From Verrucomicrobiia bacterium (GTDB taxonomy: Bacteria; Patescibacteriota; Saccharimonadia; Saccharimonadales; JAGQNK01), in contig DATHJY010000013.1 in the NCBI GenBank assembly GCA_035489575.1, positions 219,346 through 283,345 of the forward strand: 64,000 bases of DNA, written 5' to 3'. Both the position numbers and the translations under genes were made by a program. Numbering within the stretch: position 1 is the first letter of the stretch; every line of letters begins with the position of its first letter. The notes under the pieces are model-generated. The model was given only the letters and a program-made list of their open reading frames with translations. It had not been told where the DNA came from and did no database searches. Of the stretch, positions 10,289 to 64,000 are shown one piece after another.

Positions 10289-10591
10289 CTAACTTTTGAA
10301 ACTGAAGATAAAATTATCTGAAGCTACTTCAAGCCCATTTTCTTTAATGTAATCTATTTTCTTGCTCTTAGAAGCACCTCTCAACTCAATAGGAAGTCTA
10401 GAGTTTATGTAAAAGAAGAGGTCTAAACTCTCTTGCTCTCGATTATCATCAACAGGAATAAGCCCGATTCTATTCCACAAATCTAAGTCAATTTTTTCGT
10501 CTAAGCAAAAAATAAACTTACCATTAAAATACATGTCGCCATACTCTTCATTGGTAAGCTTATTCTTCAGTCTAAAATGAAATTTCGCCAT
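10289..10591 (-). CDS. Small protein encoded downstream of, and overlapping, the HipA-like kinase gene (possible partner or antitoxin)
   Basis: 100-aa ORF in the same AT-rich island. Its start overlaps the kinase stop by 20 nt. The stretch LFFYINSRLPIELRG loosely recalls the FFxNLLP motif of the HipA N-terminal subdomain, but the spacing differs. Weak. Confidence 0.45.
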   Translation of the reverse strand: MAKFHFRLKNKLTNEEYGDMYFNGKFIFCLDEKIDLDLWNRIGLIPVDDNREQESLDLFFYINSRLPIELRGASKSKKIDYIKENGLEVASDNFIFSFKS

Positions 10592-11519: not shown

Positions 11520-12846
11520 GTAGCTCGTTGTAGCTAATGCGCTCCTGCTTGGTGGTGTCGCGGTTGCGGACGGTTACGGTGTTGTCTTCTAGGGTGTCGA
11601 AGTCGATGGTTACACAGTATGGGGTGCCGATCTCGTCTTGGCGGCGATACCGTTTACCTATGTTGCCGTTGTCGTCCCACATGACGTTGCCGATTTCTTT
11701 CTTTAGGCTCTTGTAGACTTCCTGAGCTTTTTCTACCAGTTCTGGTTTGTTCTTTAGGAGTGGGCTGACTGCAACTTTGTAGGGGGCTAGCTTGGGATCT
11801 AGTTTGAGGACAATGCGCTTTTCGCCGTTAATTTCTTCTTCGTGATAGGCATCTACCAACACAGCCAGGAACATGCGCCCCACACCCACGGATGATTCGA
11901 TAACGTAAGGGGTAAAACGTTCCTTGGTCGCGTCGTCGAAATACTGCAAGTCTTTGCCGCTGACCCGCATGTGATTTCCTAGGTCAAAATCTGTACGGTT
12001 ATGGGTGCCCCACAGCTCTTTGAAGCCCTGCGGAAACTTAAAGTAAATGTCATGGGCCGCTGCGGCATAGTGAGCTCGTTCGTCCTCGCCGTGTTCATGC
12101 CAGTCCAGATTAGATTCTTCTATACCAAGTCGCTCTGTCAAAAACTTCCAGGCAAAATCACGCCACTGCTCGTAGACATCTTTTTGATCGGCAGGACGAA
12201 TGAAATACTGCATTTCCATTTGTTCGAGCTCGCGGACACGAAAGATAAAATCACGCGGGCTTATCTCGTTTCGGAAGGCCTTTCCAATTTGGGCCACACC
12301 AAACGGCAGCTTGGCGCGCATGGTCTCGCGTACGTTTTCGTAGTTGGTAAAAATCGAACCAGCCGTCTCCGGGCGCAAATAGGCTACTGATGAATCGTCC
12401 TCGATAGGACCTACCCACGTTTTCATCATCATGTTGTAGAAACGCGGCTCGGTCAGTTCCTTCTTTCCACAGGTTGGGCACGCCTTGTCTTTCAGCAGCT
12501 CTTTGAGTTCATCCAGGTTAGTAGAGTCTGTGCCAGCAAGATGATCAGCCCGGTGACGTGCACCACAGTTTTTACAGTCCACGAGCGGATCGGTAAATCC
12601 CGCGATGTGACCACTTGCCTCCCATAGCTTAGGGTTCTGGATAATCGCACCGTCCACACCAAATATGTTGTCGCTCTCGCGGACCATAGCGTTCCACCAC
12701 GCTTGCTTGATATTATTGGCCAACTCTACGCCCAAAGGCCCATAGTCCCAGAATCCAGCCAAACCACCATAAATTTCGCTGGCCTGAAATACAAACCCAC
12801 GCCGCTTACATAGCGAAACAATGTCATCCATTTTTACATCACTCAT
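11491..12846 (-). CDS. glyQS: Glycine--tRNA ligase (dimeric class II type)
   Basis: 451 aa. RRGFVFQASEIYGGLAGFWDYGPLGVEL, FRNEISPR and the ESSVGVGRMFLA class II motifs are typical GlyQS. Confidence 0.95.
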   Translation of the reverse strand: MSDVKMDDIVSLCKRRGFVFQASEIYGGLAGFWDYGPLGVELANNIKQAWWNAMVRESDNIFGVDGAIIQNPKLWEASGHIAGFTDPLVDCKNCGARHRADHLAGTDSTNLDELKELLKDKACPTCGKKELTEPRFYNMMMKTWVGPIEDDSSVAYLRPETAGSIFTNYENVRETMRAKLPFGVAQIGKAFRNEISPRDFIFRVRELEQMEMQYFIRPADQKDVYEQWRDFAWKFLTERLGIEESNLDWHEHGEDERAHYAAAAHDIYFKFPQGFKELWGTHNRTDFDLGNHMRVSGKDLQYFDDATKERFTPYVIESSVGVGRMFLAVLVDAYHEEEINGEKRIVLKLDPKLAPYKVAVSPLLKNKPELVEKAQEVYKSLKKEIGNVMWDDNGNIGKRYRRQDEIGTPYCVTIDFDTLEDNTVTVRNRDTTKQERISYNELHETLLNKEA

Positions 12847-16384: not shown

Positions 16385-17515
16385 TCATTCGAGGACTATG
16401 CTCGTTATAGTCGCCCCTGCCTGGCCATCTTTGAATTGCACAGAAACTGTTTGATCTTTTTTGAGCTGCTTAACAGAGCTAAGTGTTTTATTACCTACCC
16501 GCACCAGCACATACCCACGTTGCAGTGCAGCCATCGGGCTCAGCGCACTCAACACTTGCTGCCTGAGGGTAAGCAGCTGCCGCTCGTCAACCAAGAGCTG
16601 TCCGACAAGCGTAGTCAGGTTGCCCACGCTGTCCTTCAGAAGCTGCTGCGCATCACTGACGTTTCGCTGCAGATAAGTACCCAGCGTGACCTGTGCGTCG
16701 TTCAATTGCTGCAGCACGTGCCGCTTGTCTGGCACCAGCAATTGTGCCGCGTTGGATGGCGTACTTGCCCGCTGATCAGCCGCCAGCTCCGCCAGACTCA
16801 TGTCTACCTCGTGCCCAATGGCAACCAAGGTCACAACCCGGCTGCCGGCTACTGCCCGCGTAACCTGCTCTGTGCTAAATGCAGCTAGATCTTCTGCACT
16901 ACCGCCACCACGAGTGATCACTATCACGTCTGCCGGGTTCTCGTGTGTATTGAAGTAATCCAGTGCGGCAACGATCTGCCCAGGCGCCACTTCGCCCTGC
17001 ACCTGCACATCTGCCAGCTCTATATCTACCCCGCCCCAGCGTTCCTGCATGATCTTGATAAAGTCATGGTAGGCAGCGGATTCGCCAGAAGTTATCAGAC
17101 CGACCCGCTTTGGCGGATACGGTAGCGACCGCTTACGGCTGTCGTCAAACAAGCCTTCGGTTCGTAGCTTTGCTTCTAGTAAGGCTGCTGCCCGGCGCAG
17201 TGATCCCTCACCCACAGGCTGCAAGGATTGAACCGTAATGCTAAACCCATAAAGCGGATGGAGTCGAGGCGTGCCAGTTACCTGTATCATTAATCCATCC
17301 TCTAGCGGTCCTGACAGCTGGTACACCGTACCAAAAAATTTTACGTTGGCGTTCTCGTCTTTTAAGTCAAAATATACCCATCTGTTCTTACTGACGCGAA
17401 AGTTCGCCAGCTCGCCCACTATCGTAACTATCGGATAGGCATATTCAATCGTCTGGTTAAAGACAGCTACAAAATCCGAGACCGTCAGGACAAGGTCAGA
17501 GCTCATCAGTATCAC
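16385..17515 (-). CDS. xseA: Exodeoxyribonuclease VII large subunit
   Basis: 376 aa. It has an N-terminal OB fold (LTVSDFVAVFNQTIEYAYPIVTIVGELANFRVSKNRWVYFDLKD) and the catalytic region ITRGGGSAEDLAAF. Confidence 0.9.
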   Translation of the reverse strand: MILMSSDLVLTVSDFVAVFNQTIEYAYPIVTIVGELANFRVSKNRWVYFDLKDENANVKFFGTVYQLSGPLEDGLMIQVTGTPRLHPLYGFSITVQSLQPVGEGSLRRAAALLEAKLRTEGLFDDSRKRSLPYPPKRVGLITSGESAAYHDFIKIMQERWGGVDIELADVQVQGEVAPGQIVAALDYFNTHENPADVIVITRGGGSAEDLAAFSTEQVTRAVAGSRVVTLVAIGHEVDMSLAELAADQRASTPSNAAQLLVPDKRHVLQQLNDAQVTLGTYLQRNVSDAQQLLKDSVGNLTTLVGQLLVDERQLLTLRQQVLSALSPMAALQRGYVLVRVGNKTLSSVKQLKKDQTVSVQFKDGQAGATITSIVLE

Positions 17516-18566
17516 GCTCTAAATGGTCTTCTATCTGGGGCTGAGCGTGCAAGGTGCGATGATAAAAGAAATAGCCGGGAATCAGCTGTACGGCCATGCT
17601 GAGAATACGGTACATCACCGTCACTGGCAGGCTTAAGGCTGCCGGTATACCACCCGCTGCCAACACCGCAGTCATGAGTGCCTCATATATACCAATGCCG
17701 CCAGGCAATATAGAAATAAGTCCAGCAAAATTGGCCACAGCGTAGGCCAAAATAACCGCTCCGATATTCACCCACTGGCCAAAGGCAACGTACACGGCGT
17801 AAATGGTCATAAGCTCTGCCACAACGCTCAGGAGCGCCCACCACAAAGGCCGGTTGAGGGCCGTAATATCACGCCTAATTTGCATGTAGTTCTCGTGCAG
17901 CTCGGTAAAGGCTTTTTTAGCCCGCGTCACACTGATGGTTTCGGGGTGCTTTGGCCGAAAGATATGAATAACGCCGTTAATAAGTTTTGTCAGAAAAACA
18001 AAAAACGTATTGATACGTGACTTACTGCCAACAATAAAAGCGGCCACAAAAGTCAGCACCAAGATAAGCGTACTGAGAATGCCGGCTATCAAAATAGCAA
18101 AGTCGTTGGCCTTGCCGCCTATAGCCAGTGCGCATAGCCCCACAAACAACAATATTTGCACCGAGACAAATATCAGAATAAAACGGAATATCTGCACCAG
18201 CGTGGCCTTGGCTGTCGATATATTTTCATCACGCAGCCGTATATTGATATACGAAAAGCCACTTACGCCCCCACTGGGAAAGACGGTGTTTACAAAGTTC
18301 AGTTCCAGCGCCAAGCGCATCATAGAGCGCGTACGAAACCTGGTGCCAACAGCCCGAAACAGCCCTTGGTACAGTTTTGCCTGCGCAAAGTAGTTGAGTG
18401 TCTGCGTGAGCGGTATGAGCAGAAGATACCACAGCTCTACCTCACCAAAATTTTTATAGGTCTCGGCAAGTTGGCGCCGAACCGCGTAAGTGAGTCCCAC
18501 GAGCGCCACTATAGTAAAGATATTTAACGCGGTTTTCCATCTCCGCGAACGAAGTTTATCGGTCAT
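17496..18566 (-). CDS. Lysylphosphatidylglycerol-synthase TM-region / flippase-like (UPF0104) membrane protein
   Basis: 356 aa with about 8 TM helices. The RRWKTALNIFTIVALVGLTY start and the SILPGGIGIYEALM motif are typical of this family. Confidence 0.7.
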   Translation of the reverse strand: MTDKLRSRRWKTALNIFTIVALVGLTYAVRRQLAETYKNFGEVELWYLLLIPLTQTLNYFAQAKLYQGLFRAVGTRFRTRSMMRLALELNFVNTVFPSGGVSGFSYINIRLRDENISTAKATLVQIFRFILIFVSVQILLFVGLCALAIGGKANDFAILIAGILSTLILVLTFVAAFIVGSKSRINTFFVFLTKLINGVIHIFRPKHPETISVTRAKKAFTELHENYMQIRRDITALNRPLWWALLSVVAELMTIYAVYVAFGQWVNIGAVILAYAVANFAGLISILPGGIGIYEALMTAVLAAGGIPAALSLPVTVMYRILSMAVQLIPGYFFYHRTLHAQPQIEDHLERDTDEL

Positions 18567-35151: not shown

Positions 35152-35553
35152 ATGGAGAGGTATCTTATGAACCCTAATGAACCACAAAACCAGCAGGCTC
35201 CGCAGACGCCGCCGGCCGCAATTCCTGTCCACGACGCTCCTGCGCCAGAGCCTATTCAGCCCCGGCCACTTCTATCAAACCCGCCAACAGAAGCGCTTGT
35301 TCCCTCTGTACCCCCAGCCAATCCAACGCCAGTTGTTACCCCGCAACCAGCCGCACCACCTCCGATAAATGCAGTGTATTCAATGGGCTCGATAGAGGCG
35401 AAGCAGGCCAATCATCGCACTCGTCAGTTAATAGCACTTGCAGTAATCACCGTTGCTCTGGCGCTTATTGGAGGCGGTGTCATTTTGATGCTCCAAATGA
35501 ATAATCATTCCCCAGAAAATCACACCCCCACCCAGCACGAAGCAATGCCCTGA
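35152..35553 (+). CDS. Pro-rich, C-terminally anchored small membrane protein (hypothetical)
   Basis: 133 aa with a low-complexity PQ/PA-rich N-terminal 75 aa and one TM helix (LIALAVITVALALIGGGVILML). It is divergent from serS. Confidence 0.4.
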   Translation: MERYLMNPNEPQNQQAPQTPPAAIPVHDAPAPEPIQPRPLLSNPPTEALVPSVPPANPTPVVTPQPAAPPPINAVYSMGSIEAKQANHRTRQLIALAVITVALALIGGGVILMLQMNNHSPENHTPTQHEAMP

Positions 35554-35566: not shown

Positions 35567-36349
35567 CTATTTCTTCTGACGCTGCTTGATAGCCGCTAGT
35601 GTCAGTTGCGCACGAGCGCGGGCATAGGCGCAGTAGTCACACTCGCCACCCATCGCGGCCGATCCTACGGGCGGCATGTCGCCCTCCATGCACTGTTTCA
35701 TCTTCTCGAGCGTGGGCTCAACCCACGCGGCGTTCCCGATATAGGGAATGATTTTTGTCTTGAATTCTACCTTGTCATAAAATCCGTCCAGATCTATTCG
35801 TCCGTTTGCGTAGACAAAGTATCCGGTATCGTTTACCTCGAAGCCGTTTTGGCGCAGCAGCCATTGGTAGACCTCTAGTTGACGCTTGTAGCTTATCTGC
35901 CAATCAGAATCTATGCTCACTTCCCTGTCTTTGGCGGTCGCCTTGTAGTCGACAACTATCAGTTTTCCCTCGTCATCTACCCACGCGTCATCAATAGCCC
36001 CAAACACATGCAGGTTAGTCGGCTCATGGATCGAAACCACCCCCACAAAATTTTCCCGCCATTGATCTAGGTTGTCGTGCGTAAATGGTACTGCCTTGAC
36101 CCCGAACTCGACCATTATTGGATGCGGCTCACTTTTAGTGCGATAGCTGTCGAATTCTTTTTTGAGCAGCTCATCTATGGCTTTGTTGATATTGAACGGC
36201 GGGGTGTTGGGGCGGGTTATTTTGAGCCGTGTATCCAGCCAGAAACAGCGTGGACACTGCATATAGAGCTCAATCTTGCTGCGACTGACCTTGAATGGTG
36301 TTTTCTGGCCAGGCCGATATGGCTGGCTACGTTCCCTCCAGTAATTCAT
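35567..36349 (-). CDS. PD-(D/E)XK nuclease family protein with Cys clusters (Cas4/AddB-nuclease-like)
   Basis: 260 aa. CPRCFW lies near the N-terminus, IVVDYKATAK...YKRQLEVYQWLL forms the D..(D/E)xK..Q..Y core, and CMEGD...GGECDYCAY lies at the C-terminus. Four or more Cys are positioned as in Fe-S-binding Cas4-type nucleases. Confidence 0.65.
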   Translation of the reverse strand: MNYWRERSQPYRPGQKTPFKVSRSKIELYMQCPRCFWLDTRLKITRPNTPPFNINKAIDELLKKEFDSYRTKSEPHPIMVEFGVKAVPFTHDNLDQWRENFVGVVSIHEPTNLHVFGAIDDAWVDDEGKLIVVDYKATAKDREVSIDSDWQISYKRQLEVYQWLLRQNGFEVNDTGYFVYANGRIDLDGFYDKVEFKTKIIPYIGNAAWVEPTLEKMKQCMEGDMPPVGSAAMGGECDYCAYARARAQLTLAAIKQRQKK

Positions 36350-36356: not shown

Positions 36357-37055
36357 TTATTGTAGCAGTTTTCTGGCCAACGCGAGGCCTGCGGCTTCTG
36401 GCGAAAGGGCGTTTTCAGATACCATTAAATGCCTGAGGTTTTTCTGCGCAAAAAGTTGTTTCTCGGCGTCCGACCACCCGCCCTCGGGCGCTATCAAGAC
36501 ACCACAGCGGCTGGCGAGTTTTTGGGGCGTGCCCTCCGACTGTTCCGGCTTATACATATACAGCTCTACTTTATCCCCTAGCTGGTCCAGGGCGGTTGCA
36601 ACACGCATAGGTTCACGCACCGTAGGTACATCGCTTCGCCCAGATGCTTCGGCTTCACGCCGTACACTCTTCATTGCTTCTTGGTGGCTAAAGTCGACTT
36701 TTTCCGCCCCGCCTACTAGCAACGGCACGAAGTGACTCACTCCCAGGGCAGTAGCCTTGCGAAGCAGTTCATCGTTTCTCTTGCTGTCTCGTAGTGACCA
36801 CAGCAGATACACCTGCCGCTTAGGCAGCCTACGCTCAAAGTCAGTTACATACAGAAGGCGCGCTTCTGTTTTTTCTAGCTTTTCGATGCGATATAAACGC
36901 TCATGTTGCTGTCCATCGAACAGAATAACCTGCTCGCCAGCCTTAATTTCAGCAGCATGCCATCGCTCCAACAAATCCTGATCATGTAACCAGAAATCAT
37001 GCTTGAGTTCGACATTCTGTACGTAGAAACGGTGTAATGTATCTGCCTCTGGCAT
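36357..37055 (-). CDS. rsmE: 16S rRNA (uracil1498-N3)-methyltransferase RsmE family
   Basis: 232 aa. It has the HRFYV start and the C-terminal VLIAPEGGWSDAEKQLF motif of the RsmE SPOUT methyltransferases. Confidence 0.85.
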   Translation of the reverse strand: MPEADTLHRFYVQNVELKHDFWLHDQDLLERWHAAEIKAGEQVILFDGQQHERLYRIEKLEKTEARLLYVTDFERRLPKRQVYLLWSLRDSKRNDELLRKATALGVSHFVPLLVGGAEKVDFSHQEAMKSVRREAEASGRSDVPTVREPMRVATALDQLGDKVELYMYKPEQSEGTPQKLASRCGVLIAPEGGWSDAEKQLFAQKNLRHLMVSENALSPEAAGLALARKLLQ

Positions 37056-37079: not shown

Positions 37080-38024
37080 CTAGCGAATACCGGCTATCAA
37101 GATTGCAGCAAAAGCTACCTTTGTCAGCACACCTATGACGGCGTAGTTGCGCTCTACTACCGTGTAGCTGGCGCTTGTACCACTCTTCTTGAATTGTTGG
37201 CGTTGATTCCAGGCAATAAGACTAAACCCAGCCAAGCTTGAGGCATAGAGAGCGTATACGTACCATGGCGAGCGAACAGCTCCATAGACTACGGTCGACA
37301 CAGCATAAGCTGCCAGCAGCACCCAAGGCAATACCCCGCTGAACAAACTCACCGCGTAAGCACTCCAAACAGGCCTATCGCTGGCATTATTTTGGCGCTC
37401 TGCAACCAGACCAAGCAAACAAGTTACGAGCATCAGACCGCCCATAAGCTTCAGTACGAATAGATCCTGAACGCCACTCAAAAGCGCAATAGTCTCTACC
37501 ATCAGGGCCGCCGTAACACCTAGATCCAGCCATCGGTATGGAACCATCCGCGTATTACGCACGTAGGTGCTGTAGGCTTGCTCCAGTTTTGTGATATACA
37601 GCAGAGGCAACACAGCAGATACCAGCATGGTTGCGACTACGAGCCATCGCACCTCGATGTCGTATAGCACGTGCACGGCTGGTGCGAATACAGTAGTGTC
37701 TATGCTTGCCAGATCGTCACGAGCCCAGAGACCAACAGTAGTTTGGTAACTGCTTGAACCCATCATAACTCCCGCCAGTAGGGCAAGCAGTACAAACGCA
37801 ACTGCTGATACAATATGCCATTTGCGTAGACTCAGCATACTTGGCGCTGATTTTGAGGTTGTTGTTACCACGCTTGCGGATACTGACCTTGTAGCTTTCT
37901 TTGTTGCGGGCTTTTTAGTCGCTGCAGCTTTGGTAGTTTTGGTTTTTGCCTTGGTAGATTTCTTTGTAGTTGTAGCCATGTAAAGGAGTATACCAGAATT
38001 TTGAGAGGGAATATCCCCTCTCAA
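37080..38024 (-). CDS. Heliorhodopsin-like 7-TM protein with a Lys/Thr/Ala-rich N-terminal tail
   Basis: 314-aa ORF (an alternative ATG at 37979 gives MATTTKKSTKAKTKTTKAAATKKPATKKA...). I count seven hydrophobic helices, a long TM1-TM2 loop, YRWLDLGVTAALMVETIALLSG in TM3 (compare the RWVEY region of heliorhodopsin 48C12 as I recall it), and a Lys in mid-TM7 (ERNYAVIGVLTKVAFAA), where the retinal Schiff-base Lys sits. Aligned from memory. Confidence 0.55.
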   Translation of the reverse strand: MRGDIPSQNSGILLYMATTTKKSTKAKTKTTKAAATKKPATKKATRSVSASVVTTTSKSAPSMLSLRKWHIVSAVAFVLLALLAGVMMGSSSYQTTVGLWARDDLASIDTTVFAPAVHVLYDIEVRWLVVATMLVSAVLPLLYITKLEQAYSTYVRNTRMVPYRWLDLGVTAALMVETIALLSGVQDLFVLKLMGGLMLVTCLLGLVAERQNNASDRPVWSAYAVSLFSGVLPWVLLAAYAVSTVVYGAVRSPWYVYALYASSLAGFSLIAWNQRQQFKKSGTSASYTVVERNYAVIGVLTKVAFAAILIAGIR

Positions 38025-38070
38025 CGCGCGGCGCTCGAAATAAATTCAAGCTCCGGCTGCTCTCCCCTGG

Positions 38071-38553
38071 CTACGACAGGGCCTTATAGGGTACGTGGCA
38101 CATGCCGTGCCCTGTTTTCTCGGCAAACTTTTGGTGATATTCCTCTGCTGGATAGAATTCTGAGGCGGCTGTTATTTCGGTCACGATGGGCTTGTCGAAC
38201 GCCCGCCCTGACTCGTCACGAAGGACTGTGGCTATGGTCCGCTGGTGGTCATCCATGACAAAAAGAGCACTACGATAACTATCACCAATGTCTGGCCCTT
38301 GCCTATTTAGTTGCGTGGGATCGTGCATGTAGAAGAACTGCCTTACGAGCGTCTCATAACTTACCACCTTCGGGTCAAACTCAATCAATACCGCTTCTGC
38401 GTGGCCCGTTGTATGTGTGAGGACCTGCTCGTAAGCAGGGTTTTTGGTATTCCCACCCGTATAGCCAGCTGTAGTTTTTACGACGCCTGGTACCTGGTCA
38501 AAATAGTATTGCACACCCCAGAAGCAACCAGCCGCAAATAATGCCTGTTCCAT
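38071..38553 (-). CDS. msrA: Peptide methionine (S)-sulfoxide reductase MsrA
   Basis: 160 aa. The active-site GCFWG motif (LFAAGCFWGVQYYF) and the GYTGG and HAEAV motifs are present. Confidence 0.95.
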   Translation of the reverse strand: MEQALFAAGCFWGVQYYFDQVPGVVKTTAGYTGGNTKNPAYEQVLTHTTGHAEAVLIEFDPKVVSYETLVRQFFYMHDPTQLNRQGPDIGDSYRSALFVMDDHQRTIATVLRDESGRAFDKPIVTEITAASEFYPAEEYHQKFAEKTGHGMCHVPYKALS

Positions 38554-38646: not shown

Positions 38647-39132
38647 ATGAAGCAAGGACTAAAAGTAGCAGCACTTGTTGCAGTAAGTCTTGGAATTATC
38701 GCCGGGCCCATGACGTACAAAGCCAACGCAGCCTCTACTACGTATGTTGTAGATCCTGCCTTCGAGGCCTGCACACAGAAAGTTCTCGTTGAACAGCGAC
38801 GTCCCTTCAAGAAAGACAACTGCGCAGAACGCGTTCAGCGATTTTTGAACCAGTATAAATTCCTGATGGGTGCAAATGGCGATAGCAACAAGGTGCCTCG
38901 CGCATGGACGACATTAGCAATTGATAAAAAGTATGGACCCCTCACCCGCAAAACCGTGCAAGAATACCAGCGACTCAAGCAAAACGACTCAGACCCCAGC
39001 GCCCACTCCGGACCAGTAGACGGCAAAGTTGGTAAGCTTACCTGGGCAAGCATCAGAAGAGACTGCGTTGATACTTGGGCAGCACGCAACTTCCGCTCTA
39101 ATGTCTGCTACAAACGTGTTACCAATCGCTAA
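38647..39132 (+). CDS. Secreted protein with a peptidoglycan-binding (PG_binding_1-like) repeat
   Basis: 161 aa. It has a signal peptide MKQGLKVAALVAVSLGIIAGPMTYKANA, and IDKKYGPLTRKTVQEYQ...VDGKVGKLTWASI resembles the PGRP-type peptidoglycan-binding helical repeat. Confidence 0.6.
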   Translation: MKQGLKVAALVAVSLGIIAGPMTYKANAASTTYVVDPAFEACTQKVLVEQRRPFKKDNCAERVQRFLNQYKFLMGANGDSNKVPRAWTTLAIDKKYGPLTRKTVQEYQRLKQNDSDPSAHSGPVDGKVGKLTWASIRRDCVDTWAARNFRSNVCYKRVTNR

Positions 39133-42497: not shown

Positions 42498-43622
42498 CTA
42501 GAAGAACCGTTTTACGTCGACAACCGTGATCAGCAAGAATAAGAGCATGAGGACCGCAAATCCCGTGCCATGGATAAAGTCTTCGGTTCGCTGCGACAGC
42601 GGCTTACGCAAGCCGTGATATATCAACGTCACAAAGAGCCGTCCGCCATCTAGGGCCGGTATGGGTAGGATATTCATAATTGCGAGCGTCAGCGAGATGA
42701 TAGCGATAATGAGCAGCACAAATTGATATCCCATAAGACTGCCGTTACGCAATATAAAGAAAATGCCGACCGGGCCGCTCACTTGCTCGCTTGCCTTGCC
42801 GGTCTCTCCCTTAAAGAGGTTGCCCAAGGCACTGCCCAGGCCCTTGAAGGTTTCTACGGTAAATTGTTTTATCAATCCCCCGGCTACAATTGGTGCCGAC
42901 CATGTTGACCGCCGCAAGACGTATTCCGAAGGTGACACGCCCAGGTATCCTTTGGGTTCGTCTGATTTCTTGCTCGACTCTACCTCGTCTTTTGTCCGCA
43001 AGACCGTGGATGCAGTGGTTGTCTTGCCGTCCCTGACATAGGTAATCTGCACTTCTTTACCTGCAAATTGCTGAGTCAGATCAGGCAAGGGTTCTCCTGA
43101 CGAAAGCTCTCGGACGGTGTCACCCTGACGGATAAATAAGAGCTGATCCCTCTCCTGCAAGCCCGCCTTTTGGGCCGGTGAGTCGGCTTCGACAGTAGCC
43201 ACAAGCAGCTTTTGTTGGGTGACCTTAGTGTCACGCGCCACGGTGAATTGGTTATCGAGCAGTTGCGGCATGCCAGCGACCGCCACAATAGTCAGCACTA
43301 CAAAGGCGGTTGCCAAATTCATGACCACCCCTGCTACCATAATATATATCTTGGTATTTAGACGAGCTGCACCAAAACTACCCGGCTCTTTATCGGCATC
43401 ATGCTCGCCCTTCAGGCGCACAAATCCGCCCAAGGGCAGCCAGTTGAGCGTATATTCGGTACCGTGCTTTTTGGTCAGTACTTTGGCGCGCGGCGGAAAG
43501 CCAATGCCAAATTCTTCCACCTTAACCCCGCCACGGCGGGCCATCACAAAGTGACCGATCTCATGAATTACCACCAGCCCAACAAACAGGAACAACCCAA
43601 TTACAAGTAAGAATATAGACAT
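42498..43622 (-). CDS. rseP: RIP metalloprotease RseP (M50 site-2 protease) with PDZ domain
   Basis: 374 aa with HEIGHFVMAR (HExxH in TM1), a PDZ-like SPAQKAGLQERDQLL stretch, and the NILPIPALDGG motif. Confidence 0.9.
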   Translation of the reverse strand: MSIFLLVIGLFLFVGLVVIHEIGHFVMARRGGVKVEEFGIGFPPRAKVLTKKHGTEYTLNWLPLGGFVRLKGEHDADKEPGSFGAARLNTKIYIMVAGVVMNLATAFVVLTIVAVAGMPQLLDNQFTVARDTKVTQQKLLVATVEADSPAQKAGLQERDQLLFIRQGDTVRELSSGEPLPDLTQQFAGKEVQITYVRDGKTTTASTVLRTKDEVESSKKSDEPKGYLGVSPSEYVLRRSTWSAPIVAGGLIKQFTVETFKGLGSALGNLFKGETGKASEQVSGPVGIFFILRNGSLMGYQFVLLIIAIISLTLAIMNILPIPALDGGRLFVTLIYHGLRKPLSQRTEDFIHGTGFAVLMLLFLLITVVDVKRFF

Positions 43623-56164: not shown

Positions 56165-59100
56165 TTAAGGAAGAGGACAGTTAAAGTTAGGGTCGCCCGC
56201 CACAGCGCTGCCTTTCCTACAAGGGGTGTCGAGGGGCTGCTGTTCACCACCAGTGAATGTCTTGCCGTGACGCAGTCGCTTACTGGGGTCACTCGTAAAG
56301 AAGAGCGATATGTCGTTCACTGTTGGACCCCTGTTTACATCCTCTGGATATCCGAAAGTTTTGGAGGCGTCGATGCTCACAAAGAAGTAGTAGTATCTTG
56401 CACAGTTAATATTGCCTCCGCCACTCTCTTTCGGAATGTACTGTTCCACATTGCCCAATGTTACATTACCGAAGACTGTCTCCTGCCCCCAGGTGGTCAT
56501 TTGGGACATGGCTAACGACGTACCACAATCTTCGGTCGGGTTGATGTATGGCGCCGCGTCCAAGTCATGCATACTGCGATAGCGCATATTCCAGCGAGCA
56601 CCTATAGAGTTGTCGATACCATTCATCAGCCATGAATTGGGGAAGACATCAGTGTCGGTATCTATCATTCTTGAATACATGGCAACCTGTGGCTGCGATT
56701 TAGCAGTCGAGTAGTAGTTTCGGTTGCCCGAGCCAACAACCGCCGAACAGCCTCCTCCCATGGTAAAGATCCTCCCCTTATCCATGGCTACAGCCGCTCC
56801 GTATCTGTCGCCAGTGTATCTGACATTAGTCTCGTACCATTCCCCGATGCCCGTGGGATTATTGCCCGTAGGAATAGTAGTGTTAGCACTTACTGGTGTT
56901 ATAAGCGTGTTTGGAGCGCAAGTGGTTGCAGCCGATCTCCCACCAATAACATAGATATACCCATTCGCCGACAGAGCTTGGCCATCTCTCAGTGGTCCCG
57001 GCAAGCTAGTCGTATACGTCCAGCTGCCGACGTTTCCAGTAGCCCCGTCAATCTTAGAAAACTGGGCATCGCTCAAGTAGTTCGTACCGTCAAACCCACC
57101 GAATAGATAGAGGTTGTTGGCATAGGCCGTCACGGCCGCGCCCGTTCGGGCCACGTTGAATGCAGTGGAGCCCGTAGACCATGCAGATGTAATATTGCCC
57201 CCTGAGTTAAGTACTGGGCTCACATACACGGTACTCGTAGCTGCAGCACTGTCGTTGAACCCACCAACTACGTACAATCTGTTGTTCCATACCGCAGCGC
57301 CATGCTGCGTCCTATCCCCCGGCAAACCCTGGGTTGCCTGTAACCAAGAAGCTACATTACCACTGGCAGTGACACCGTAGTAGACCTCTAGCTTCTCATC
57401 GCCTGCGCCATCCTGGCCGCCCATATAATAAAGCGTACCTCCGGCCGCCTCTAACTTACCCCAAGCTCGAGCCGCAGGCATAGTGGTGTCCGTAGTACTA
57501 GCCCAGGTGCCAACCGTTCCATCAGAAGCACTGATTGAGGCAACTTGCACATCATCCGTCACGGTGCCACAAGCAACAGCGGTGCAGCCACCGGCCACAT
57601 AGAGCCGCCCATCAAGGACAGCAGCGGCTGAGCCTATTCTGTCAGCTACCGTAGAGAAATCTTGATCCGACTGAAGGGTATAGTTATTAACTGCTCCGCT
57701 ATCGTTGTTGTACAGCTGGAATGTTTGGACGGCGGGCTCGAAACTCGTACAGCTACTGGGGCTTGCTCCTGCGTCACACCCGCCCAGCACGTACGCATAC
57801 GAATTAGAAACAGCCATACTAAGACCCCACCTCTGGTTAATAACCACTGTGGAGGTCTCGAAGGAATCAATGGTTCCATCGCTTACATTCATTTTGGCCC
57901 ATTCAATAAAGGGAATAACTCCGGAACCTTCGTCATACCCACCCACCGAGTAAATGTGTCCGTTATACCCAAAACTAAAGCCACGCCGACGCCCAACAGA
58001 CAGCTTATTCGGCGAGATGTCCCATATATTATCGGTCACCGTTTCGCCATCGGCATCAACAACGTTATTACTATTGTCGAACTTGGCGATCATCACATCG
58101 TCTTTGTCAGCCTCGAGGTCGCTATATCCACCGATAAGGTAGATGTAGTTTGCGTTGACAGTACCAGAGTGAATACCCAGCCCCTGGTTGCCTCCAGTTC
58201 CTGGCTCGGAATCAATCTGCAACTGTCCAGTTGTTGTGCAGCCTGACACACTTCCGGTAGTAGTGATATTACACTTGTAGACCTCGCTTTCATATCTATC
58301 CGTTCCGGCCACCGCCTCACAGCTAAGCCCTGCCCCAATACCATTTCCACAACCACCGAAGATGAACAGATTACCCGGGTTAGTACCGGCAGAGCCAGGG
58401 TTGGCTCGTGCGTAGACATAGGTATATGCCACGTCCTCTGCGATACCAGCTGTTGTCATATCTACAGATTCCCAGGCACCATCCAGACTGCCGTCGGCAT
58501 TGACGGCGTTGTGGTAGATGTTTGTAGATGTATCAGCTCCGGTGAGGCCGCCCACTATATATATGCGGCCGTTAAAGGTTGTGACTCCAGCCGCTGCCAC
58601 ACCCGTTGTACCATTTACTCTATTTGTTGAGTCAATACACCAAGCCCCATAGCTTGAACCGGCACACGAACCGGGAGCGCTGAGCTGTCCGTTCGAATTG
58701 ATGGCAACATACGATATGTTACCACTGGCATCGGAGTCGTCACCATCACCATGGTCATCACTCACTCCGGAGCAGTCTAGGTCAATACACCCCCCGATGT
58801 TATAGAGATATCCGTTGAGGATCACACTCATAGAGAGTAGCTCTCCCCCTTCATCGGGATCGTCCCCCGGATCTGGAAGGTTACAGTTATACGGCGTGCC
58901 TCCGGCACAAGTACCTGCCCCGGCTGCAGCTGACAGGTTCACGGTTGAAACCTCTCCGGCTGGATTTATCACACCGTAATCGACATCGGCAAGCGTCACT
59001 GTACATTCACCCGTAGAGGCATTCTGGGTTATACAGCCCCCTAGCCTGTATAGTCCGTTTTGCCATGCGACTAGACTGAAGCCCGTTCTCTGGTTATGGA

Positions 59101-61657
59101 GGTTGGTTATACTGCCCCACTCAGAAAGTGATCCGTCGGCATTGATGCTTGCAAGCTGAGTATCACTAGCCACGGCGTTGCAGTAATAGTTAGAAGCGCC
59201 CGTTGTAGCCGTACAACCCCCGGCAATATATATGTAGCCGCCCCATATAGTCGAGAAGCTGCCGCCCCAGGTACTCCGGGCAGTCGTAAAGCCAGAGGTT
59301 GAAACCCAGCTATTCATACTGCCATTACTGTTTAGCTTGCTATAGTGCACCGTACTTTGTTGGGTTCCGCCACTATCCCCACCGATCAGATAGAGCACAT
59401 CATTATATATGTGCGCCGTGTGCCTATAACGAGCCGACGGCAAGGCAGTACCGCTCGACCAGCTACCAAGTGTACCGGTGGGATTGATGTCGGCATACTC
59501 CATTGTCGTCGTTCCGGTCGCAGCAGCGCCAGTCGCCCCACCAACGATATACATGCGGTTGTTATACGCTACTGCGGCAAGGTATGACCTGCCTGTGCCA
59601 CTGCTCAATCCGGTGTCTGAGTACCAGTAGGCTGCCGTACCTCCGGACGGATGCCATAGTTGGGGTTCGCCATTTGCGCCTATCTTTGCAATCAACACTG
59701 TGGCTTCACGGTTACCGCTGCCATCGATTCCGCCGATGACATAGAGATAGCCATTGTAGGCAACCATAGAAAATCCTCGACGTGCCTCTGGTAGATCATA
59801 GGCACTGTTAGTACACCATTCAGAACATACTCCATTGCCAGGGTTGGGACTTTCGATAGCGAGTGTTGACGAATTAAACTTTGCCCAGTAAACGCTACTC
59901 TGGGTAGCGGGCGTAACTGTAGTCGGATTGATAGCCACCGAGAGTGCACCATAGGTGCCGTTCATGGAAGTATCAGCAGTAGCCGCTGCACCAGTAGAGA
60001 CACCGCTAGCCGGTGGTACGTTAAGGCTGGCAGCCGCAAAGCCACAACTCTCCGCATCAGCGCTACTGGTACCAGAGTATATTTTGGTATGAGCGCTGGG
60101 AACCCATCCTCTGGTACTAGGCGGGTCGTCATCAACGCCCGCTCCCCTGATAACAAGGGTGGCATTATTGTCTGGGGTTGTAGCCGGGAAAGACACCGCG
60201 CCACTGGTATTAGTTGTCCCTGGAGTACCCGCAATAGGATCCCCTGAGTTAAAGCCTTTCACTCGCATAATTACCCCGGTCCATTGCTCGGTAATGCCGG
60301 TCCAGTTATACGAGGCCGCCTCATTGCCACCCCCTTGGTCGGTACCAATCCTATACCAGCCGCCAAACTCGTCTGTATCGGTGGCGCTAAAGGCGGTCCA
60401 ACCGGCCGGCGCCGTAGGGGATCCGGTGCCGTCGTGGCAAAGCATAGCTACGTACAGATCACCCGCCGGGCGGACAGAGGGCATATTCATCGTAAACGTT
60501 GCGCTATTCGTAGCCTGGGTAGAAGACTGGCTACTAACTATCCAAGGCTTTGTTACTCCCGTTCTGCCACCAGCACGATAGATATATCCACCTGCCGCGG
60601 CTGTGCCACTATCCCAGTTGCCTTCCGTCATGTCCAGGTTTTCCTCCCAGGCATCGATGCGCGCACCAGTTGTTTGGCTCTTCTGGATGAGCTCTTTGTC
60701 TATATCAAAGTCGACGTTTGTTTCGTTATTACCCTTCATCAACTTAGCTGCGGTCTCTATATAGACGCTCGGGTCAATCGTGAGCGGATAGGTCGCATCC
60801 GTGAGTCCCGTAGCATGCACCGTGAGTTCCTTCCCCTCCAGCGTAAACCAAGCTTTCTTGTCGCTCACCACTCGCTCGCCAGCTTCCTTGATATATGGTG
60901 CTGGAAATGTAAATAACAGATTGCGCTTCACGGCATTTTGTCGAGCCTTGTCCAGTAATTGCTTATCGCTGTCGCTTCCCACGCTCACATCACCCAGCAG
61001 GTTATAATCAGCCCCATAAACAGCTAGCGATCCGTTTGACTCCAGTCGTAACTCCGTTCCATCTGGCAGCTCTAGGTCATACTTGAACTCCAGCGTATCG
61101 CCCTGAAACTTGTTGATAATGATATCTTCCTTGAAGCCAACCGTCTTCAGGGAGACGACCTTAGTAGCGTTCTTGGCTGTGAGTGGATATATCAGTCTGT
61201 TTTGATCTTGCTTCGGCTGGAGCATGCCAAACTTGGGTTTGAAGGTAACAGAGGTCCGTGTAACGGGGTCGCTTACCGTAGTACCTTTACTGGGATCAAG
61301 ATTAAACGTCGCACTAAATCTGGGAGAACCATTGGTCCCACCAAGTTCACCGGGTTTATAGCCTTGGTTATATTCGTAGGTACCCTGCTTGGCGTCAATC
61401 TTCAGGCTGTCTCCCAGGGGTGCATATGGATTGCCGACTAATGCAGCAGCTTTTGGTGATAATTCGTAGCTTCCCGACTCAATAAATACCTGGATGGTCC
61501 GCAAAAACACCATTCCCGCAAAGAAGACGGCGAGGGACAAACTACCAGCACGGGATAAAACCTTGCGGTCATGCAGCCAGACACCTAAACGAAGATGCTT
61601 AGGCGCGCGCTTAGCCAAGCGACGGCGTCTGGATTTGGCGCTTTTTATATTCCTCAT
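56165..61657 (-). CDS. Giant (1830 aa) membrane-anchored surface protein with ~18 Kelch-type beta-propeller blades
   Basis: It has an N-terminal basic segment and a TM anchor (LSLAVFFAGMVFL). I count 18 copies of the Kelch signature hydrophobic-Y/F-x-x-GG (YRAGG, YVIGG, YIVGG, YLIGG, YIAGG, YRLGG, YNIGG, YIVGG, FIFGG, YLIGG, YSVGG, YVLGG, YVAGG, YYMGG, YVVGG, YLFGG, YVIGG, FTMGG). Each is followed about 25-35 aa later by a W-containing strand. Many blades carry Cys right after GG. Confidence 0.8.
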   Translation of the reverse strand: MRNIKSAKSRRRRLAKRAPKHLRLGVWLHDRKVLSRAGSLSLAVFFAGMVFLRTIQVFIESGSYELSPKAAALVGNPYAPLGDSLKIDAKQGTYEYNQGYKPGELGGTNGSPRFSATFNLDPSKGTTVSDPVTRTSVTFKPKFGMLQPKQDQNRLIYPLTAKNATKVVSLKTVGFKEDIIINKFQGDTLEFKYDLELPDGTELRLESNGSLAVYGADYNLLGDVSVGSDSDKQLLDKARQNAVKRNLLFTFPAPYIKEAGERVVSDKKAWFTLEGKELTVHATGLTDATYPLTIDPSVYIETAAKLMKGNNETNVDFDIDKELIQKSQTTGARIDAWEENLDMTEGNWDSGTAAAGGYIYRAGGRTGVTKPWIVSSQSSTQATNSATFTMNMPSVRPAGDLYVAMLCHDGTGSPTAPAGWTAFSATDTDEFGGWYRIGTDQGGGNEAASYNWTGITEQWTGVIMRVKGFNSGDPIAGTPGTTNTSGAVSFPATTPDNNATLVIRGAGVDDDPPSTRGWVPSAHTKIYSGTSSADAESCGFAAASLNVPPASGVSTGAAATADTSMNGTYGALSVAINPTTVTPATQSSVYWAKFNSSTLAIESPNPGNGVCSEWCTNSAYDLPEARRGFSMVAYNGYLYVIGGIDGSGNREATVLIAKIGANGEPQLWHPSGGTAAYWYSDTGLSSGTGRSYLAAVAYNNRMYIVGGATGAAATGTTTMEYADINPTGTLGSWSSGTALPSARYRHTAHIYNDVLYLIGGDSGGTQQSTVHYSKLNSNGSMNSWVSTSGFTTARSTWGGSFSTIWGGYIYIAGGCTATTGASNYYCNAVASDTQLASINADGSLSEWGSITNLHNQRTGFSLVAWQNGLYRLGGCITQNASTGECTVTLADVDYGVINPAGEVSTVNLSAAAGAGTCAGGTPYNCNLPDPGDDPDEGGELLSMSVILNGYLYNIGGCIDLDCSGVSDDHGDGDDSDASGNISYVAINSNGQLSAPGSCAGSSYGAWCIDSTNRVNGTTGVAAAGVTTFNGRIYIVGGLTGADTSTNIYHNAVNADGSLDGAWESVDMTTAGIAEDVAYTYVYARANPGSAGTNPGNLFIFGGCGNGIGAGLSCEAVAGTDRYESEVYKCNITTTGSVSGCTTTGQLQIDSEPGTGGNQGLGIHSGTVNANYIYLIGGYSDLEADKDDVMIAKFDNSNNVVDADGETVTDNIWDISPNKLSVGRRRGFSFGYNGHIYSVGGYDEGSGVIPFIEWAKMNVSDGTIDSFETSTVVINQRWGLSMAVSNSYAYVLGGCDAGASPSSCTSFEPAVQTFQLYNNDSGAVNNYTLQSDQDFSTVADRIGSAAAVLDGRLYVAGGCTAVACGTVTDDVQVASISASDGTVGTWASTTDTTMPAARAWGKLEAAGGTLYYMGGQDGAGDEKLEVYYGVTASGNVASWLQATQGLPGDRTQHGAAVWNNRLYVVGGFNDSAAATSTVYVSPVLNSGGNITSAWSTGSTAFNVARTGAAVTAYANNLYLFGGFDGTNYLSDAQFSKIDGATGNVGSWTYTTSLPGPLRDGQALSANGYIYVIGGRSAATTCAPNTLITPVSANTTIPTGNNPTGIGEWYETNVRYTGDRYGAAVAMDKGRIFTMGGGCSAVVGSGNRNYYSTAKSQPQVAMYSRMIDTDTDVFPNSWLMNGIDNSIGARWNMRYRSMHDLDAAPYINPTEDCGTSLAMSQMTTWGQETVFGNVTLGNVEQYIPKESGGGNINCARYYYFFVSIDASKTFGYPEDVNRGPTVNDISLFFTSDPSKRLRHGKTFTGGEQQPLDTPCRKGSAVAGDPNFNCPLP

Positions 61658-61743: not shown

Positions 61744-64000
61744 CTACTGGTTGTAGTAGGTAAAGTCGAGATTCTCGATGTAGACATTGGCATTACTTTT
61801 GGCCATGGTGCTTACTTTAAAGATAACGTAGTCACCTCCAACCCAGCCGCATGTTGTCTCGCCAGCCCCCCCCAAAGTTGTCGTGTTCCAGGCGCTCGTC
61901 CCTGTCGTTACAGTGGTCGTACCACCGCACTGGCTAATAGAACCGCCAGATACATTCTTTCTGTACACCTCAAGGCTCGCCTGCGCGTTAGTGGCATGGT
62001 CTTTATATGCGGTAAGTCGAATAGTACTATCACTCGCAAATGTCTTGAAGGTTGTTGGTAGCTTGTACGTTACGTAGATACTATAAGTCTGATCGGTTGC
62101 CTGCGGACTTGTCCAACGGTAGTAGTTGCGCGCTTCACCAGAGGCACAGAAGCTAGTATTGGCGCTCAGGCCACCGCCATTACCGCAGAAGTCAGCCGTC
62201 ATAGTACCGATGCCAGACCCGTTCAGTACGGCACCGGTATACTCTGGCGTCAGGGTAACGATGTTGTCTGGGGCCGAACCGCAAGCACCCCACCCATCAG
62301 ATTCGTAACACTGGATACGTCCGGTTGTCGTGTCATAGTACATAGACCCAAGGTAGGTTGTATCACCATTCGCCACAGGTGGCGCCGTAGAACGATCAAG
62401 CGTGAAGAGCGTAACCTGACCACCGTTAATTCCGCCGCCAATCTGTACATTAGATGGTTGGGTGGTGCCGTCATTGCGCATAAAGCTAAGGTTATCAATC
62501 CAGAAAGTCCTACCAATTCCATCTGTTTGCCTGATGATGAGGTCGGGGTTTATTGCGGTTGTGCCATCAGTGGTAATCGTGCAAGTAATCTTTGTCCACA
62601 CAGAGGTAGAGAGTGTCTGTGTGCTATAGCTCGTACATGGTTCCAGATCGGTCCCGCCATCTCGAGAGTATTGAACGTCTAGAGTCGTAAATGTTCCTGA
62701 TGATAGTTTTGCCGTAAACGAAACTTGATAGGTAGTACCGGCTACAGGGTTTGCGCTCAAGTTGTTACGAACACCATGATTTGTAGTGGTGGTGACCACC
62801 TGCATGCCCGCCAAGCCGGTGACAAACTGGCCAGCAGTAGTCGTTCGCGTTACAGTGCCACCAGCCGGAGCAGCCGTCCAGTTTGTTCCAAAGGTACCCA
62901 AGGTCTCGGAACCACCGTTAGCCGCAAGTTCGGTACCAAAGTTATTAACACTGAAAAGGTTAGTTCCGATCGATGATTGTACCTCGAATATTCCACCGCT
63001 GATAGGACTCGTGGCATTGTTGCGTATCGTCAAGCCGTCAGCACTGCCCCCTGGAGCATTCAGCACCAGCTCGGCTCCACCCGCAGAGGTCAAAGTATTG
63101 TTGTAGGCAGACTGAAGGTCGGTGGAGCTTGAGGCGCCCGCAGCAGTCCAGTCTGAACCATTCCAGATCATAGTAGCGGTAGTATTGGGCTTCATAGCTA
63201 TGGTATTGCCAGTACCCCCGCCGTTGACGGAGAGAGTGAAGTCATTTGCGCCCACATTCGTCACGTACATTATGCGGCCTGCCGTAGTTATGGTTGGGTC
63301 ACCAAGCGTAGCTGTCAAACCTGGATTGGTCGCGTTTATTAATACCGCACCATTGCCGTCAACGTTAGCCTGGGTAACTGCACAGTTGCTCGAGCAGTTC
63401 TGTGCACTCGCAGTACTGATGGTTGGTGTATCTATTACAACGAGTCCTTTAACCCCTGTACCAAAGCCTGTGCCACCATTCAAAATCAAGTTACCGCCGT
63501 TAGCGTTGCCTACGGTTGCGTTGCCGCCCTGAAGCGTTAAGGCTCCGCCGGCGACAGCTGTGGTCGAGCTACCTGTACCGCGGATAGCAAACGCGTTAGG
63601 TGCAGCAGCAGTCACCCCGTTACCCATGTATAAATTATTACTCGTATCAAAGGTAGCACGAGTCGTACCGCCCGTATTAATGATCGCACCGCCCGTTCCG
63701 CCTTGAATAGTGGTAGCCGATGTCCCGGTAGTCGACCCAAGAGTTGTACTATGATCCGTGCCATTATTACCTATGCCGCAAGTACCCGTTCCGCAAATGA
63801 TAGAGACCGACGTATTACCGGTATTGTTACCGATAGTAACCGACTTGGCATTTCCACCTGTACCTACGTTGACAGCCCCTGTCGTACCCGAGTCTAACGT
63901 CATGGCAGTTGTAGTTGCACTTGTTACCGACAGAGCCCCCACCGTATTGGTTATGGTACCACTCTGTACGTCAAGCGTACCGTCAAGCCGGGTTATTCCA
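61744..64000 (-). CDS. Large Gly/Thr/Asn-rich beta-helix-like surface protein with a C-terminal jelly-roll (CBM-like) region; 5' end beyond the window (partial)
   Basis: The track ORF starts at a GTG (63942), but my translation shows the frame stays open to base 64000. It contains degenerate repeats (GGTGGAIINTGGTT, LQGGNATVGNANGGNLILNGGTGFGTG) and a C-terminal segment (NWTAAPAGGTVTRTT...YQVSFTAKLSSGTFTTLDVQYS...FWIDNLSFMRN) that resembles carbohydrate-binding jelly-roll modules. Confidence 0.7.
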   Translation of the reverse strand, partial: GITRLDGTLDVQSGTITNTVGALSVTSATTTAMTLDSGTTGAVNVGTGGNAKSVTIGNNTGNTSVSIICGTGTCGIGNNGTDHSTTLGSTTGTSATTIQGGTGGAIINTGGTTRATFDTSNNLYMGNGVTAAAPNAFAIRGTGSSTTAVAGGALTLQGGNATVGNANGGNLILNGGTGFGTGVKGLVVIDTPTISTASAQNCSSNCAVTQANVDGNGAVLINATNPGLTATLGDPTITTAGRIMYVTNVGANDFTLSVNGGGTGNTIAMKPNTTATMIWNGSDWTAAGASSSTDLQSAYNNTLTSAGGAELVLNAPGGSADGLTIRNNATSPISGGIFEVQSSIGTNLFSVNNFGTELAANGGSETLGTFGTNWTAAPAGGTVTRTTTAGQFVTGLAGMQVVTTTTNHGVRNNLSANPVAGTTYQVSFTAKLSSGTFTTLDVQYSRDGGTDLEPCTSYSTQTLSTSVWTKITCTITTDGTTAINPDLIIRQTDGIGRTFWIDNLSFMRNDGTTQPSNVQIGGGINGGQVTLFTLDRSTAPPVANGDTTYLGSMYYDTTTGRIQCYESDGWGACGSAPDNIVTLTPEYTGAVLNGSGIGTMTADFCGNGGGLSANTSFCASGEARNYYRWTSPQATDQTYSIYVTYKLPTTFKTFASDSTIRLTAYKDHATNAQASLEVYRKNVSGGSISQCGGTTTVTTGTSAWNTTTLGGAGETTCGWVGGDYVIFKVSTMAKSNANVYIENLDFTYYNQ

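Follow-up and report, generated by a model that had tools for sequence, protein, structure and literature searches.

The function of heliorhodopsins (HeRs) is largely open, and the known cases comprise a few examples of partner regulation and one viral proton transporter. Partner regulation has been described for AbHeR and glutamine synthetase, for TfHeR and photolyase, and for OcHeR and an ABC transporter (PMC9529153, PMC9769723, PMC11109279); these HeRs do not pump, they bind their partners via cationic cytoplasmic residues, and they are recurrently paired with them in the same operon. N-terminal additions to the HeR core are also known, namely Znf-HeR, MORN-HeR and the uninterpreted extensions ntv1-ntv10 described by Bulzu et al. 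(2021, PMC8612252). In Saccharimonadia, 80 HeRs have been reported and a role in mitigating oxidative stress has been suggested (Chiriac et al. 2022, PMC9166423). Here we analyze a HeR gene on the minus strand (37080..37979) of a 64-kb stretch of contig DATHJY010000013.1, which is referred to as the window and from whose first letter all positions are counted. Judged by its sequence, the encoded protein belongs to a distinct tail-bearing HeR subfamily of Saccharimonadia (Saccharibacteria/TM7, part of the candidate phyla radiation, CPR). This subfamily, apparently retinal-free in part, is a testable lead on HeR function, and the adjacency of the methionine sulfoxide reductase gene msrA, which an earlier note on this DNA had taken to invite a light-sensing link to oxidative-damage repair, reads as ordinary synteny.

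The gene encodes a genuine heliorhodopsin by profile, by fold and by the position of its lysine and counter-ion. Pfam Heliorhodopsin PF18761 matched the open reading frame (ORF) at 108.2 bits (cutoff 26.7; E = 5e-31; 240/242 profile positions) and the NCBIfam HeR equivalog NF038020 at 112.4 bits (cutoff 100), both scores lying above the curated cutoffs. A phmmer search of the PDB returned heliorhodopsins only (TaHeR 6IS6/7CLJ, E = 9e-21; 48C12, E = 1.5e-11), and the best sequence match was 7CLJ, the E108D mutant of TaHeR. An AlphaFold2 (AF2) model built from 42 homologues, with a mean confidence (pLDDT) of 82.9 and a predicted TM-score (pTM) of 0.76, contains seven helices and a beta-hairpin (strands at residues 77-87 and 98-109) in the long loop between transmembrane helices 1 and 2 (TM1-TM2), which is the first extracellular loop (ECL1). 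The seven-helix core, including this extracellular hairpin loop (residues 74-109), is encoded by 37080..37838 (minus strand). By Foldseek the model superimposes on TaHeR (6IS6/7U55) with TM-scores of 0.89-0.92 and a root-mean-square deviation of 2.1 A; the top ten hits are all HeRs (0.84-0.92), and type-1 rhodopsins reach only about 0.5-0.6. The N-terminus is predicted to be cytoplasmic, in the inverted topology of HeRs, from a positive-inside count of 22 Lys and Arg residues in the N-terminus and intracellular loops 1-3 (ICL1-3) against 3 in the extracellular segments. The earlier note, which had proposed a heliorhodopsin-like gene with seven helices, a long TM1-TM2 loop and a cytoplasmic N-terminus from the letters alone, is thus borne out on each of these points.

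TaHeR (PDB 6IS6, 7U55) is the best match in both sequence and fold, at about 26% identity. The two proteins share the Schiff-base lysine, the R-W motif, the equivalent of E227 and the ECL1 beta-hairpin; the window HeR differs in bearing a tail and in four substitutions (H23 to L, H82 to P, S234 to G and S112 to T). Key residues were mapped by PDB alignments and direct translation of the codons, and residue numbers refer to the 299-aa protein. Both assignments that the earlier note had made in this region hold in the alignments to 48C12 and TaHeR. The Asp of YRWLDL (Asp152 in RWLD; codon at 37524..37526, minus strand) aligns with TaHeR E108 and 48C12 E107, the counter-ion, where it replaces Glu, and the Lys in the middle of TM7 (Lys287 in GVLTK, the Lys of VLTKVA; codon at 37119..37121, minus strand) aligns with the retinal Schiff-base lysines TaHeR K238 and 48C12 K241. 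The natural Asp is the same residue as that engineered in TaHeR E108D (7CLJ). Since pigment with an unchanged spectrum still forms in the engineered mutants E107D of 48C12 and E108D of TaHeR (bioRxiv 10.1101/2020.06.24.168591; PDB 7CLJ), an Asp counter-ion is compatible with retinal binding.

48C12 (PDB 6SU3, 6UH3) has the same fold (TM-score 0.84-0.87) and no cationic tail. Ten of its checked residues are kept in the window HeR (S76, Y92, R104, W105, E149, W173, Q213, Y226, E230 and K241), and six are changed (E107 to D, H23 to V/L, H80 to P, S237 to G, Y108 to L and N101 to M). A His pair near the Schiff base, H23/H80 in 48C12, is a hallmark of HeRs. It is absent from the window HeR, which has L65 or V63, and P125, in these columns. 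The same holds in most of the 121 subfamily sequences, where the two columns contain Leu in 102 and Pro in 106. The SxxxK motif in TM7, a criterion for "bona fide" HeRs (PMC8612252, PMC9166423), is likewise missing: the window HeR reads GVLTK, with Gly283 in the Ser237 column, and across the subfamily this column holds S in 50, N in 33, G in 26 and T in 8 sequences. At the counter-ion, 94 sequences have D, 13 have E and 14 another residue, and at the Schiff-base position 98 have K, 19 have R and 4 have Q; the K and D of the window HeR are both kept in 82/121 relatives. By these column counts the missing His pair, the Asp counter-ion and the altered Ser column are traits of the subfamily, not idiosyncrasies of one sequence. 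The Saccharimonadia/CPR HeRs of Chiriac et al. (2022, PMC9166423) come from the same organismal group, but they were screened by SxxxK and carry SLVAK, SLIAK or SFVAK, whereas the subfamily described here combines [S/N/G]xx[T/A]K and an Asp counter-ion with a long tail and includes members without the lysine. Its sequences would partly fail that screen, and published screens that require SxxxK thus miss part of HeR diversity.

An obvious feature of the subfamily is its N-terminal tail, and its extent depends on the start codon. A mechanical call of the ORF (37080-38024, minus strand) begins at a TTG and gives 314 aa. Translation almost certainly starts instead at the ATG at 37979, for a protein of 299 aa, because the N-termini of homologues begin there (a MAT(T)(T)K start in 99 of the 120 best homologues) and because a -10 box lies just upstream of it. 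From this ATG, codons 1-47 (37839..37979, minus strand) encode a cationic tail rich in Lys, Thr, Ala and Ser that opens with the conserved motif MATTTKKSTKAKTKT and is modelled as disordered (pLDDT < 50 in the AF2 model). Its composition is T13 K11 A9 S7 V3 P2 M1 R1 (T 28%, K 23%, A 19%, S 15%), with no Asp or Glu and an isoelectric point of 11.6. An equivalent tail is present in 111/121 homologues, with a median length of 59 aa (range 40-93), an overall composition of K 24%, T 23%, A 17% and S 11%, a median net charge of +16 and a median of one acidic residue. The conserved motif, MAT(T)(T)KKS(T)KAKTKT, makes up the first ~15 residues, and the remainder is conserved in composition only. Most of the few database entries without the tail either were called from an internal Met or come from truncated contigs; P0002, for instance, is 100% identical to the window protein, yet it was called from Met48. 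The K/T/A-rich tail that the earlier note had remarked on is therefore real, and it is unlike characterized HeRs: solved or characterized HeRs have no such tail, and their alignments begin at about residue 10-15.

Among homologues the tail codons vary synonymously and the peptide is kept. Compared with the 92%-identical relative L099, the tail shows 14 synonymous and 4 non-synonymous differences, a ratio of non-synonymous to synonymous substitution rates (dN/dS) of 0.07 over 47 codons, which is similar to the 0.045 of the membrane core in the same comparison. The substitution pattern indicates that the tail is translated and under purifying selection. The internal Met48 (the start of the 252-aa JGI gene call P0002) was considered as an alternative start and rejected in view of the dN/dS, the motif conservation and the position of the promoter.

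This promoter consists of an extended -10 element, TGgTATACT (37987..37995, minus strand), which ends 7 nt before the HeR ATG. Because the -10 box lies 7 nt from the ATG and no Shine-Dalgarno sequence is present, the HeR mRNA is probably leaderless. The arrangement recurs in the subfamily: in 20 of 23 tail-bearing HeR genes of other genomes a TAnnnT stops 6-7 nt short of the ATG, and 16 of the 20 also have the TGn extension, mostly as TGnTATAGT or TGnTATACT and without a Shine-Dalgarno sequence (loci with a -10 box upstream of HeR are L001-L007, L010-L014, L017, L025, L036, L037, L043, L069 and L096). The same promoter-at-start geometry was also seen at several other window genes, e.g., 274-1551, 11491-12846, 17496-18566, msrA and 42498-43622.

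Stretches of this K/T/A-rich kind are specific to HeR genes in the DNA scanned. The tail is the only one in the 64-kb window, and in ~1.05 Mb of Saccharimonadia DNA all 21 of the 21 ORFs with such a stretch are HeRs. All attributable tail-bearing homologues come from Saccharimonadia. Searches with the tail itself returned little: Pfam and NCBIfam gave no match at E <= 1 beyond noise, a tail-only search of a word index of 5.8 billion proteins collected four candidates, none of which scored, and an exhaustive HMMER search, run with a profile built from 48 sequences over the first 36 residues of the tail, produced 0 hits at E <= 0.001, the motif being too short and compositionally biased for that method. 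In the literature we found no description of the tail, of its function, or of lysine-less HeRs in Saccharimonadia.

Two kinds of known appendage resemble the tail in part. Znf-HeR and MORN-HeR share with it the layout of a cytoplasmic N-terminal addition to the HeR core, proposed by Bulzu et al. (2021, PMC8612252) as a signalling output. Those additions are folded (a zinc ribbon and MORN repeats) and occur in Thermoplasmatales and Firmicutes, whereas the tail described here is a disordered, low-complexity cationic segment of Saccharimonadia; it may fall among the uninterpreted ntv classes of that study (PMC8612252). The second resemblance is to nucleoid proteins. Some bacterial nucleoid proteins have lysine-rich, histone-H1-like tails, e.g., the HU extensions in Deinococcus and mycobacteria. 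Such tails share with the HeR tail a disordered, acid-free composition rich in K, A, T, S and P, but the HeR tail is attached to a membrane photoreceptor and not to a DNA-binding fold, is richer in Thr, and has no detectable homology to them.

What might such a HeR do? We give about even credence to a reading, drawn by analogy with the characterized proteins, in which it is a retinal-binding, non-pumping sensor or regulator and the tail carries its cytoplasmic output or assists in it. The HeR would bind all-trans-retinal scavenged from the environment or a host, as Saccharibacteria are reported to lack retinal synthesis, their rhodopsins loading external retinal (PMC9296517), and as none is encoded in the window. 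As the earlier note had observed, no retinal-biosynthesis gene is visible there: no carotenoid or retinal synthesis Pfam family was found among the scanned window ORFs of at least 150 aa. Like characterized bacterial HeRs, the protein would not pump ions but would act as a slow-cycling sensor or regulator, with its output on the cytoplasmic face, where the tail would serve as an output or tethering module. The tail would bind electrostatically to an acidic partner or polyanion, which could be nucleic acid, an acidic lipid surface or an acidic protein; the MATTTKKSTKAKTKT end may make a specific contact, and the rest of the tail may act as a flexible cationic linker. Known binding between HeRs and their partners uses cationic cytoplasmic residues (PMC9529153, PMC9769723), and the pair of lysines in ICL3 is kept in the window HeR.

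Several observations weigh against this sensor reading. No homologue or domain match was detected for the tail, and its binding partner is for that reason purely inferred. No histidine kinase or response regulator was found near the HeR, in the window or in related loci. The replacement of the His pair by L/V and P and of the SxxxK Ser by Gly may give a photochemistry different from that of characterized HeRs. Furthermore, 23/121 (~19%) close relatives have no Schiff-base lysine and still keep the tail (P0036, P0044, P0046, P0053, P0055, P0058, P0060, P0068, P0071, P0074, P0079, P0083-P0086, P0089, P0091, P0093, P0095, P0097, P0105, P0113 and P0116; loci noted for the loss are L006, L009, L012, L013, L017, L025, L028, L034, L043 and L096), and the core function of the subfamily may thus be independent of retinal or light.

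These lysine-less members support the strongest alternative, that the protein is primarily a light-independent membrane protein in which scaffold and tail have a structural or tethering role, for instance anchoring the nucleoid or RNA to the membrane or organizing a membrane domain, with retinal dispensable or vestigial in the lineage. We consider this unlikely, though it is the alternative to be taken most seriously. On a neighbour-joining tree the loss of the lysine requires at least five changes, and the lysine-less sequences form persistent, tail-keeping clades of 3-11 members. Because they form clades of up to 11, they are maintained genes, and the loss of the lysine in maintained clades in turn implies that part of the family works without covalently bound retinal. 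The counter-ion is kept as D or E in 19/19 K-to-R variants and lost in 4/4 K-to-Q variants. More divergent, more degenerate HeR-like ORFs occupy the same slot and have V, A, I or L at the Schiff-base position. In one Saccharibacteria genome (L006) two HeR genes stand in tandem (L006:6961-7770 and L006:7824-8750), the first being canonical and tail-less (RWIE/SLVAK) and lying immediately upstream of a tail-bearing, lysine-less one (RWLD/SLVIR), which suggests that the tail-bearing lineage is a functionally distinct paralogue. The lack of retinal synthesis genes among the scanned window ORFs would fit as well. What holds this alternative back is that the window HeR itself, like 82/121 relatives, keeps the K and the D along with most of the checked 48C12 key residues, which speaks for maintained retinal binding, and that tethering has no direct support.

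A more far-reaching reading can also be put forward, tentatively and with clearly less belief than in the sensor reading. Here the HeR scaffold of Saccharimonadia would have been repurposed as a membrane anchor for a polyanion-binding tail, the primary function being light-independent and retinal an optional modulator; with the same reserve, the targets of the tail could be nucleoid DNA, RNA or ribosomes, or an acidic partner. An anchor of this kind would explain why the tail is kept through at least five losses of the lysine, why K-to-R variants always come with Asp or Glu, and why L006 has a pair of HeRs. Possibly, the salt bridge between Arg and Asp/Glu in the K-to-R variants mimics the protonated Schiff base. 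The subfamily provides an experimental handle, combining a conserved, output-like appendage with natural retinal-free variants (K-to-R with the counter-ion kept, K-to-Q with it lost).

A further alternative, which we regard as improbable, is that the tail is a feature of biogenesis without any partner, either a topogenic signal under the positive-inside rule or an A/C-rich, unstructured 5' region that aids leaderless translation. The leaderless architecture of 20/23 tail-bearing genes, the A/C-rich and G-poor first codons and the extreme charge bias speak for this explanation. Nevertheless, the low dN/dS over the 47 codons, together with frequent synonymous changes, implies selection on the peptide; canonical HeRs of Saccharimonadia in the same slot reach the same topology without a tail; a tail of 40-93 aa far exceeds topological needs; and the other leaderless-type genes of the window have no such tails.

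The neighbourhood of the gene bears on a fourth explanation, which follows the idea of the earlier note and in which the HeR binds methionine sulfoxide reductase A (MsrA) and up-regulates it in the light, giving light-regulated repair of oxidative damage; we find it very unlikely. The flanking genes are as the note had named them (its interval, 37080-38553, takes in both the HeR gene and msrA). Upstream lies msrA, peptide-methionine (S)-S-oxide reductase (38071..38553, minus strand; PF01625, 203.7 bits; TIGR00401, 190.7 bits), and downstream a syntenic housekeeping gene for an rsmE-family 16S rRNA methyltransferase (36357..37055, minus strand; TIGR00046, 71.8 bits). The explanation draws on the AbHeR-glutamine synthetase and TfHeR-photolyase pairs, on the general link between HeRs and oxidative stress that has been proposed (PMC8612252, PMC9166423), and on the retained cationic residues of ICL3. 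Moreover, msrA is directly upstream of HeR in 14/16 HeR-selected GTDB loci with upstream sequence, in six of which it is inverted and only ~40-47% identical to the window MsrA.

To judge such an association, a sample chosen independently of HeR was used, i.e., 80 metagenomic loci collected via a Cas4-like anchor gene, in which HeR was identified by HMM and msrA by tblastn and of which 29 span the slot. Of these, 8 loci carry both genes, 7 carry HeR but not msrA, 8 carry msrA but not HeR, and 6 carry neither one (odds ratio 0.86, P = 1.0, Fisher's exact test), so that the two genes occur independently. In the nearest relatives, as ranked by Cas4-like identity, msrA occupies the slot whether or not HeR is there, which explains its high adjacency in the HeR-selected GTDB loci. 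Co-occurrence as a sign of coupling is therefore rejected. The two genes lie on the same strand, 91 nt apart, but each has its own -10 box (that of msrA is TATACT, 8 nt before its ATG), and past the stop codon of msrA, ahead of the promoter of HeR, stands a perfect palindrome with a 10-bp stem, TTGAGAGGGGATATTCCCTCTCAA (38001..38024, minus strand), with a predicted RNA fold of -41.7 kcal/mol (z = -4.2). The palindrome is probably a hairpin that terminates or insulates msrA transcription. It was found once in the window, and the ~78-nt segment that holds it is lacking in the 92%-identical L099; it was accordingly rejected as a conserved operator. Whereas the partners of AbHeR, TfHeR and OcHeR are encoded in the same operon and recur with them, the msrA of the window is probably transcribed separately and is statistically independent. 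It is also absent from the ten published classes of HeR neighbours (PMC11109279), the main text of PMC8612252 does not mention it in its context analysis, and our literature search found no paper that pairs heliorhodopsin with MsrA.

Because co-occurrence is independent, the promoters are separate and, in the window, a stable though unconserved hairpin lies between the genes, the adjacency of HeR, msrA and rsmE looks like an inherited housekeeping gene order and not a functional module. In Saccharimonadia genomes the order proS-greA-...-msrA-HeR-(rsmE)-cas4like-serS forms a conserved backbone, and adjacency in such highly syntenic CPR genomes is weak evidence for function. Other recurrent neighbours were considered as partners and rejected, since all look like housekeeping genes as read from one representative sequence per cluster: they resemble an rRNA methyltransferase-like protein of 450 aa, a HAD-like protein, lysyl-tRNA synthetases, greA, rsmE, the cas4-like gene and serS. 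Saccharibacteria, reduced epibionts unable to make retinal, keep a HeR within a core housekeeping neighbourhood. The last explanation, a light-driven or light-gated proton transporter like the viral V2HeR3 (PMC9448325), has membership in the same family and an altered Schiff-base environment (no His pair, an Asp counter-ion) that could change proton handling in its favour, but no transport has been seen in the bacterial and archaeal HeRs tested to date (PMC9769723, PMC9529153), the sequence has no specific sign of a conduction pathway and the lysine-less relatives cannot be light-driven, which leaves it with next to no credibility.

The gene content of the window and of related loci provides the setting. 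Among 17 related loci from GTDB species representatives, 13 are labelled Saccharibacteria, Saccharimonadales or Saccharimonas, and the other four just "Patescibacteria group bacterium" or "bacterium." The window encodes translation and ribosome genes (rpsB, tsf, frr, prfA, prmC, prfB, proS, serS and rsmE), envelope and secretion genes (uppS, an M50 protease, a CAAX protease, secA, ftsE and ftsX), and greA, msrA, HeR, a Cas4-like nuclease, pyrG and parAB. The Cas4-like gene (35567-36349, minus strand) encodes a PD-(D/E)XK nuclease with a C-terminal Cys cluster that is 56-80% identical across Saccharimonadia. In all loci that reach far enough it lies directly upstream of serS or is separated from it by a short insert; its behaviour is that of a core housekeeping gene and not of a CRISPR component, and it is a good synteny anchor.

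The greA-msrA interval is variable in an otherwise syntenic region, other Saccharimonadia having 2-5 kb of different genes there. Beside msrA and divergent from it, a gene at 38647-39132 (plus strand) encodes a small, secreted-looking PG_binding_1 protein and was found only in the closest relatives L036, L098 and L099. At 35152-35553 (plus strand) a proline-rich ORF of 133 aa, hydrophobic in a C-terminal segment, matches no family; in L098 and L099, the two closest relatives, a gene of 128-132 aa was called in this place.

Further genes of note lie elsewhere in the window. At 3882-7127 (minus strand), a PIF1/RecD-like helicase (3882-5405), an NYN-domain protein (5508-6098) and a KwaB-like DUF4868 protein (6111-7127; PADLOC KwaB, 49 bits, with no recognisable KwaA found) may form a defence island or a variant of Kiwa. 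At 10572-11519 (minus strand) the gene for a HipA-like kinase, which matches the PADLOC candidate system PDC-M03A at 103.6 bits, shares an overlap with the 3' end of the gene for a class-II aminoacyl-tRNA synthetase (11491-12846). Toward the end of the window come a 1830-aa Kelch-repeat beta-propeller protein (56165-61657, minus strand) and then a 732-aa protein carrying a CBM_4_9 carbohydrate-binding domain (61744-63942, minus strand); both may belong to the giant surface proteins suspected in the host attachment of epibiotic CPR bacteria.

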